Shown here piece by piece: positions 4,254 to 4,562 of a stretch of DNA of 7,298 bases. Under the pieces are notes generated by a model. The model had not been told where the DNA came from, did not search any database, and saw nothing but the letters and a program-made list of their open reading frames with translations. This DNA is from a virus. The first letter of the stretch is position 1, and the number at the start of each line of letters is the position of its first letter. The stretch lies in the IMG/VR virus record IMGVR_UViG_3300031760_001924, positions 1-7,298 of that record. One strand, 5' to 3'. Both the position numbers and the translations under genes were made by a program.

Positions 4254-4562
4254 GTGATTAGTCTCATTCAATTTGATGAGTTCGGGCCTGGAATGGGCTT
4301 GCCCAGCATAAAAGACAGCTTTAGCAAGGCCCCATATGCTGGTAAAGAAAAAGTAATAGCATATCTGTCCAAAGGCAGGAAAACATACGTAGCAACAAGC
4401 TATAGTAGAGATGTGTTTACCGGAGAAATGATCCCAGGCGAGAGATGCGGGATGACAGATGGCGAATATAGCTGGAATAGCGCCCTGGCGTATTATGTTG
4501 AAAGATACAATCTCAGATTACCTTTGGAGTTTGAGGAGAAAGCTTTAAGAGCAGAGCAATAA
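4254..4562 (+). CDS. hypothetical 102-aa cytoplasmic protein; candidate immunity or inhibitor partner of the preceding C-terminal domain
   Basis: GTG start at 4254 is preceded by GGAGGTGAT (4242-4250), the best anti-SD complement in the window. It begins 18 nt after the upstream stop. No signal peptide or TM segment is evident. It shares the low GC of the upstream C-terminal domain. Confidence 0.65.
   Translation: MISLIQFDEFGPGMGLPSIKDSFSKAPYAGKEKVIAYLSKGRKTYVATSYSRDVFTGEMIPGERCGMTDGEYSWNSALAYYVERYNLRLPLEFEEKALRAEQ

Follow-up and report, generated by a model that had tools for sequence, protein, structure and literature searches.

The question raised by this locus is whether a 102-amino-acid open reading frame (ORF102), which directly follows the toxin-like C-terminal end (CT) of a phage MuF gene, encodes the immunity or inhibitor protein of that end, as a preliminary description of the sequence had proposed. 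The whole stretch of DNA analysed, 7,298 nt in length and referred to here as the window, is filled by a phage head module on the + strand. The features needed to address this question are the following.

180-1619, + strand: large terminase TerL (Pfam/PHROGs assignment)
1627-3042, + strand: portal ORF, 66% identical to the PF05133 (SPP1_portal) protein of locus L087
3039-4235, + strand: MuF fusion ORF of 398 aa, stop codon TAA at 4233-4235
3039-3755, + strand: MuF-type virion-targeting part of the fusion, aa 1-239 (VG15, PF25310, at aa 5-205, E 2.7e-48)
3756-4235, + strand: CT domain, MuF aa 240-398 (invariant residues, AlphaFold model, GC 0.433)
3876-3878, 3999-4001, 4011-4013 and 4083-4085, + strand: key CT residues His280, Arg321, Cys325 and Pro349, respectively, in MuF numbering (alignment)
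4242-4250, + strand: Shine-Dalgarno sequence of ORF102, GGAGGTGAT (direct sequence reading)
4254-4562, + strand: ORF102, 102 aa, GTG start (homologues, model, CT linkage, GC 0.434)
4563-4680, + strand: conserved non-coding tail with a hairpin at 4566-4597 (about 90% identity to L087/L088)

The MuF gene lies behind TerL and an SPP1-type portal, which is the usual order for genes of this type (PMC5576092). The hallmarks of a MuF toxin are all present, namely an N-terminus of the MuF superfamily, the post-portal position, a 159-aa extension and the 102-aa ORF downstream. Located 3' of ORF102 are a DUF4355 scaffold protein and then the major capsid protein (MCP). The scaffold ORF (5042-5650) probably starts at 5138 rather than at 5042, since a GGAGGAG Shine-Dalgarno sequence precedes the ATG at that position and the homologous region begins there. 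This start leaves a gap of about 575 nt between ORF102 and the scaffold gene, which is unusually long (267 nt in the closest relative). Searches of the window for tRNAs and Rfam families gave no match. The PHROGs library calls the matching MuF families 'head maturation protease'; the match is restricted to the MuF part, and this name is apparently a database misnomer unrelated to the peptidase predicted below for the CT domain. A role of the CT domain itself as head maturation protease was rejected, as the PHROGs label covers the MuF part, the CT-ORF102 pair is not confined to phages and an S78 protease of their own is present in some of these phages.

ORF102 is a real gene, as is evident from the size and the modelled structure of its family. 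A word-index search retrieved 54 homologues of about 100 aa, and when 1.84 billion cluster representatives were searched exhaustively with an HMM, 2020 of them matched at E <= 1e-3, of which 454 reached E <= 1e-10. The AlphaFold monomer has an alpha/beta fold with a mean pLDDT of 95 and a pTM of 0.85. Most of what the preliminary description had read from the window about this gene held on closer inspection. ORF102 begins exactly 18 nt after the MuF stop (spacer 4236-4253), and the proposed GTG start is supported by its homologues, which begin at the same position (MISLIQFDEFG...). The Shine-Dalgarno sequence GGAGGTGAT, 9 nt long with its GGAGG core 7 nt from the GTG, is indeed strong, but it shares rather than holds the rank of best in the window claimed for it, with rivals in GAGGTGATC (9 nt) before the gene at 6699, AGGAGGA before the MCP gene and the GGAGGAG of the probable scaffold start. 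Similarly, the claimed lack of an export signal agrees with a maximum Kyte-Doolittle hydropathy of 0.67 over 15 residues and a GRAVY of -0.41. No promoter-like site was found on the + strand ahead of ORF102.

The low GC content said to be common to the CT domain and ORF102 (0.433 and 0.434, respectively) proved to be a sharply bounded island. The MuF N-terminal part has a GC content of 0.548, TerL and the portal gene 0.56, and the scaffold and MCP genes 0.54-0.59. At third codon positions the values are 0.37 for the CT domain and 0.43 for ORF102, compared with 0.60-0.76 in the other genes. The closest relative, L087, contains a low-GC island of identical type.

Four residues of the CT domain (His280, Arg321, Cys325 and Pro349) are invariant in an alignment of 72 CT homologues and in all 33 paired loci. 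In the AlphaFold model of the domain (pLDDT 90), the histidine and the cysteine are placed at or just past the ends of two strands and are separated by 45 residues. The best fold matches of this model in the PDB were to the cysteine protease domain (CPD) of the Vibrio cholerae MARTX toxin (3gcd/3eeb; E 4e-3, probability 1.0, TM 0.44), with further matches to the CPD of TcdB and to a CHAT protease. Clan CD, which includes family C80, is defined by a dyad of histidine followed by cysteine on this fold (PMC12445089). The CT domain is thus predicted, from its invariant dyad and the C80-like fold matches, to be a caspase-like (C80-like) cysteine peptidase of clan CD, in agreement with an earlier guess that it could be a protease. 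The likeness to C80 is weak. Sub-threshold Pfam matches to Peptidase_C80 were obtained for 10 of the 72 members (best E 0.0027) and to DUF4347 for 7 of the 72, while the CT domain of the window itself did not match PF11713 (Peptidase_C80) and found no match in the PDB by sequence. With family scores below the gathering threshold, the CT domain is not, on sequence grounds, a demonstrable member of family C80. The full-length MuF-CT proteins compared here were drawn from loci, as a profile search with the CT domain gave only proteins shorter than 300 aa, an apparent length bias, and a word-index search with the CT domain alone gave one match.

A survey of gene neighbourhoods, which the preliminary description had suggested as a check, was based on ORF102 contexts from assemblies, IMG/VR and GTDB genomes, and all loci were scanned with HMMs of both families. 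The CT domain was encoded directly upstream in about 29 of the 37 informative loci seeded with ORF102, counts that, like the other linkage counts given here, rest on pattern-seeded samples and not on a census. A scatter of the homologues over mostly unrelated contexts, which had been named as evidence against an immunity role, was accordingly not seen. The gap between the two genes in these loci is about -3 to 30 nt, and stop and start codons often overlap. Further, ORF102 is linked to the CT domain irrespective of the delivery domain. This N-terminal part may be VG15, Phage_Mu_F (PF04233) or Phage_min_cap2 (PF06152), or may be missing, and the portal types also differ among these loci. In particular, the CT domains of the window (VG15) and of L009 (Phage_Mu_F) are 53% identical, while their N-termini cannot be aligned. 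Several Clostridia genomes encode a free-standing CT protein of 126-219 aa followed by an ORF102 homologue, in ordinary chromosomal surroundings of non-phage character.

The reverse test gave the same result. Among metagenome loci seeded with the CT domain, in searches using alignments smaller than the 72-sequence one, an ORF102 homologue was present in 15 of 15 non-Rhs cases in which the DNA extended far enough downstream, some of these homologues being highly divergent. Adding three CT proteins that were traced one by one (Frankia P0138, P0126 and P0158) brings the count to 18 of 18 non-Rhs CT loci whose downstream DNA could be read. The Frankia protein, a 273-aa non-MuF CT protein in a non-phage setting, is followed by an overlapping gene for a 134-aa ORF102 homologue (E 1e-11). 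Similarly, the divergent stand-alone proteins P0126 and P0158 are followed by overlapping ORF102 homologues (E 1e-28 and 2e-11, respectively), and one of these two pairs adjoins a holin/amidase lysis cassette. Pairwise identities of the CT domains and of the ORF102 proteins co-vary across 33 distinct pairs (Mantel r 0.76, with 0 of 2000 permutations as high). This alone does not prove contact, since co-variation is expected for adjacent genes that are inherited together. Compared with L087, the CT domain and ORF102 are the best conserved part (76% amino acid identity), the terminase, the portal and the MuF N-terminal part being 49-66% identical. The CT domain and ORF102 constitute a mobile, low-GC cassette of two genes, which has been joined to different MuF families and in other cases stands on its own. 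One record (IMGVR_UViG_3300045988_130549; L025/L057) contains two tandem MuF-CT plus ORF102 cassettes, which are diverged copies and resemble a toxin-immunity array.

A divergent CT domain, with the histidine and the cysteine intact, was also found as the C-terminal tip in three independent Rhs-type contexts. It is located directly behind the DPxGL cleavage motif in L054/L072 and in L086, and behind a YD-repeat-like sequence in L083. At >=99% identity, 92 of 5426 complete Escherichia coli genomes contain the Rhs-CT of L072, in a gene with the annotation 'RHS element core protein' and with a gene for a tetratricopeptide repeat (TPR) protein after it. Judged from these sequences, the CT domain is a true polymorphic-toxin tip with presumptive toxicity. 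No ORF102 homologue was found 3' of the Rhs-borne CT domains, and TPR/Sel1-like or lipoprotein-like ORFs occupy that position instead. The TPR/Sel1-like protein is presumed to be an alternative immunity protein for the E. coli Rhs-CT; several immunity families per toxin superfamily are usual in polymorphic toxin systems (PMC3482391). ORFs with lipoprotein-type signals follow the Rhs-CT genes from soil and other environmental sources (L083, 1153-1584; L086, 2185-2730). CT variants of this type may act in the periplasm, a different compartment, as their exported-looking partners suggest.

Eight loci contain an ORF102 homologue without a CT domain, including one pseudogene and one fragment; the pseudogene is an orphan homologue with an in-frame stop in a Lachnospiraceae MAG (L038, 3001-3294). 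A tblastn search of plasmids revealed further homologues on replicons of Ralstonia, Rhizobium and Streptomyces. On the Ralstonia megaplasmid (L091), an array of small genes behind the gene for a CdiA-like haemagglutinin (DUF637) contains Imm30 (E 2.4e-15) and, after it, the ORF102 homologue. On Rhizobium pRLN2 (L090), the homologue overlaps an 82-aa remnant of the CT C-terminus (E 4e-9), and the next gene is annotated as a MafI family immunity gene. Both displaced toxin tips accompanied by their immunity genes and loci with several immunity genes in a row are characteristic of polymorphic toxin systems (PMC3482391), and the orphan ORF102 copies occupy such immunity-type loci.

The impression that ORF102 may belong to no named family was borne out in the curated libraries and the PDB. 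Neither Pfam, including its Imm models, nor PHROGs, NCBIfam or PADLOC gave a family at E <= 1, and no consistent weak Pfam match was found across 53 aligned homologues. A comparison with the PDB gave no sequence match and no fold match (best E 1.4). In the BFVD set of predicted viral structures, the model matched only uncharacterised proteins at TM values of about 0.5-0.7, from Erwinia jumbo phage Y3, siphoviruses, Marseillevirus, Harvfovirus, Edafosvirus and Terrestrivirus. Invariant and near-invariant positions of the family are concentrated in the segment ...GMTDGEYSW.S.L.YYVEKYNLRLP.EFE. The conserved hairpin in this segment (MTDGEYSW, aa 67-74) is a speculative candidate for a contact with the CT domain. 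Some family members contain two or three tandem ORF102 repeats in one polypeptide. Multi-domain or fused members were noted among P0182, P0187, P0207, P0208, P0249, P0296 and P0281; the ORF102 domain is fused to an AraC-like regulator in P0296 and to an HD-like domain in P0281. No CT-ORF102 fusion protein was found among the top 150 representatives, and tblastn searches of 50,697 GenBank phage records with ORF102 and the CT domain gave no match. A published description of either family was not found in the literature. Both families thus appear to be undescribed, with neither a curated model nor a solved structure.

Taken with the use of the CT domain as an Rhs tip and the orphan copies in immunity-type loci, the linkage of the two genes supports the immunity or inhibitor reading that had been proposed for ORF102. 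The family is found nearly always directly after this CT domain, and ORF102 therefore most likely neutralizes the CT protease. We consider ORF102 to be the cognate immunity or inhibitor protein of the CT peptidase with a probability of about 0.7. The CT peptidase (aa 240-398, with His280 and Cys325) would be taken into the virion by the MuF part and is probably carried on into the next host cell. ORF102, presumably cytoplasmic, would be translated from the same late transcript right after the peptidase. We infer that it binds the CT domain approximately one-to-one and holds a putatively toxic peptidase inactive in the producing cell, while orphan copies may shield cells from incoming CT peptidase. 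Small immunity genes located after MuF toxins have experimental precedent in Apk2 and Bxa/Bsi (PMC11699363), and a survey found an ORF of <150 aa downstream of 89% of MuF toxin genes (PMC5576092). Several points weigh against this reading: the Rhs-borne CT domains have no ORF102 downstream, the giant-virus fold relatives of ORF102 are not obviously explained by an immunity role, the likeness of the CT domain to C80 is weak, and the caspase-like domains of polymorphic toxins are mostly not the toxins themselves (PMC3482391).

An inhibitor of the CT domain need not be an immunity protein. The CT peptidase may be a phage effector or a self-processing enzyme rather than an antibacterial toxin, serving host takeover, counter-defence or release from the MuF part after ejection; ORF102 would then be a timing device or chaperone that silences it during assembly, and the stand-alone pairs would be toxin-antitoxin-like. 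The pair does lie in a late head operon in which no + strand promoter-like site precedes ORF102, MuF fusions have been proposed as injected effectors (PMC5512222), stand-alone chromosomal pairs exist and the caspase-like domains of polymorphic toxins are mostly releasing or processing peptidases, not toxins (PMC3482391). However, Rhs proteins have the CT domain as their toxin tip, and the orphan ORF102 copies in CdiA/Imm30 and MafI loci are a better fit to interbacterial immunity. ORF102 is also unlike a typical antitoxin in that it has no DNA-binding domain and is encoded downstream of the CT domain, and on balance this explanation is considered unlikely. Type II antitoxins have a DNA-binding domain, and their genes are usually upstream of the toxin gene. 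ORF102 was rejected as an antitoxin of this type, as its gene is always downstream of the CT domain and no HTH, RHH or AbrB match was found in Pfam, either for ORF102 or family-wide.

Tight and often overlapping gene pairs and co-divergence would fit any stable complex equally well, including one in which ORF102 is an obligate partner of the CT domain (an activator, specificity subunit, substrate or cargo) and not its inhibitor. Each partner is found without the other, however. The Rhs-borne CT domain does without ORF102, and ORF102 occurs without the CT domain in at least 8 loci, as tandem repeats and among immunity genes; an obligate role is therefore disfavoured and very unlikely. The position of ORF102 between the MuF and scaffold genes would suit a small accessory of head morphogenesis that follows the CT domain incidentally, of the kind encoded in SPP1 by small ORFs between gene 7 and the gene for the scaffold. 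Such a role is hardly credible, since the pair exists outside phages, in Frankia and Clostridia chromosomes, with homologues on Rhizobium, Ralstonia and Streptomyces replicons. The pair is also found beside a lysis cassette, ORF102 follows the CT domain whatever the head module, its base composition is foreign and it has no PHROG match. A broader possibility, which we regard as quite unlikely, is that proteins of the ORF102 fold are carried by viruses to inhibit caspase-like (clan CD) peptidases in general and that pairing with MuF-CT is one specialized use of them. If true, this would explain why orphans occur in the early regions of prophages and on plasmid-like elements, and it would account for the tandem repeats and the jumbo-phage and giant-virus relatives. 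Proteins of this fold could then block caspase-like defence proteases of the host, such as CHAT proteases, metacaspase-type proteases and gasdermin activators.

An immunity role for ORF102 would place the pair among systems of a kind that is already known, phage toxin-immunity systems, and the concept of polymorphic toxins is unchanged by it. The closest parallel is provided by the MuF toxins (Jamet et al., 2017, PMC5576092; Apk2 and Bxa-Bsi/BAH, PMC11699363), which share with the present pair the post-portal gene, the N-terminal MuF domain, a variable enzymatic C-terminus followed by an ORF of <150 aa, and the setting in phages of gut Firmicutes. Unlike the MuF toxins listed so far (nuclease, metallopeptidase, ART and RelA-like), the CT domain is a predicted clan-CD cysteine peptidase, and ORF102 has no relative among the known MuF immunity proteins; the present pair is known from sequences and predicted models. 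Tox-Caspase, with its Imm36 and Imm57 partners (Zhang et al., 2012, PMC3482391), resembles the CT domain in its caspase-like fold with a His, Cys dyad and in its toxin position at the extreme C-terminus, including after Rhs repeats, a comparison made by description. The delivery routes given for Tox-Caspase omit MuF, and no Pfam family, Imm models included, matches ORF102.

The C80 CPDs of MARTX and of TcdA/TcdB, the best structural matches of the CT domain, have their catalytic residues in the order of the putative CT dyad and at a similar spacing (about 45 residues). These domains are internal, are activated by InsP6 and process the toxins that contain them, which act against eukaryotes. In contrast, the CT domain sits at the end of its protein, is carried by bacteria or phages, is shorter by about 50 residues and has a dedicated small protein as its partner. 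For the possible role of ORF102, Cpe1-Cpi1 serves as a working model, in which a cysteine protease toxin carried on Rhs, CdiA and T6SS proteins is neutralized by a small, adjacent and co-evolving immunity protein (PMC12136450). Cpe1 differs from the CT domain in being papain-like, with the cysteine before the histidine and another fold, and the toxin and immunity sequences of the two systems are unrelated. The E. coli RHS core protein described above, with a divergent tip of the same family that has kept the histidine and the cysteine, shows the use of the CT domain as a toxin tip; its locus differs from the window in the TPR/Sel1-like gene downstream and in having no ORF102 homologue.

MuF toxins are common in phages of gut Firmicutes, and immunity proteins have been characterized for only two enzymatic types (Apk2 and Bxa). 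The present analysis adds an unnamed toxin domain of predicted protease type that is shared by phage MuF proteins, Rhs elements (including those of E. coli) and free-standing cassettes. It also adds a large unnamed family of partners (about 2000 sequence clusters), whose fold is predicted with confidence and has no counterpart among solved structures. If this role is confirmed, ORF102 would be the first protein dedicated to inhibiting a C80-like bacterial peptidase, and the family would provide a marker for the annotation of thousands of genes now called 'hypothetical' in metagenomes from gut and rumen.

The non-coding DNA behind ORF102 (4563-4680) is about 90% identical in the closest relatives, L087-L089, compared with 77.7% for the alignment of the whole cassette, and this tail is tentatively included in the cassette. 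The hairpin at 4566-4597 has 14 pairs, with a fold z of -1.6 that is no better than that of shuffled sequence; it is absent from loci more distant than these closest relatives and has no Rfam match.

On the minus strand of the same region, the hairpin is terminator-like and lies where a 92-aa ORF (4893-4615), which has no family match, comes to its end. A near-consensus sigma-70-like promoter at 4994-4966 on the minus strand (TTGATA-17-TATAAT with a TG element) is directed toward this ORF. The minus-strand segment 4615-4994 could be an antisense, moron-like unit within the head module, or a chance arrangement.
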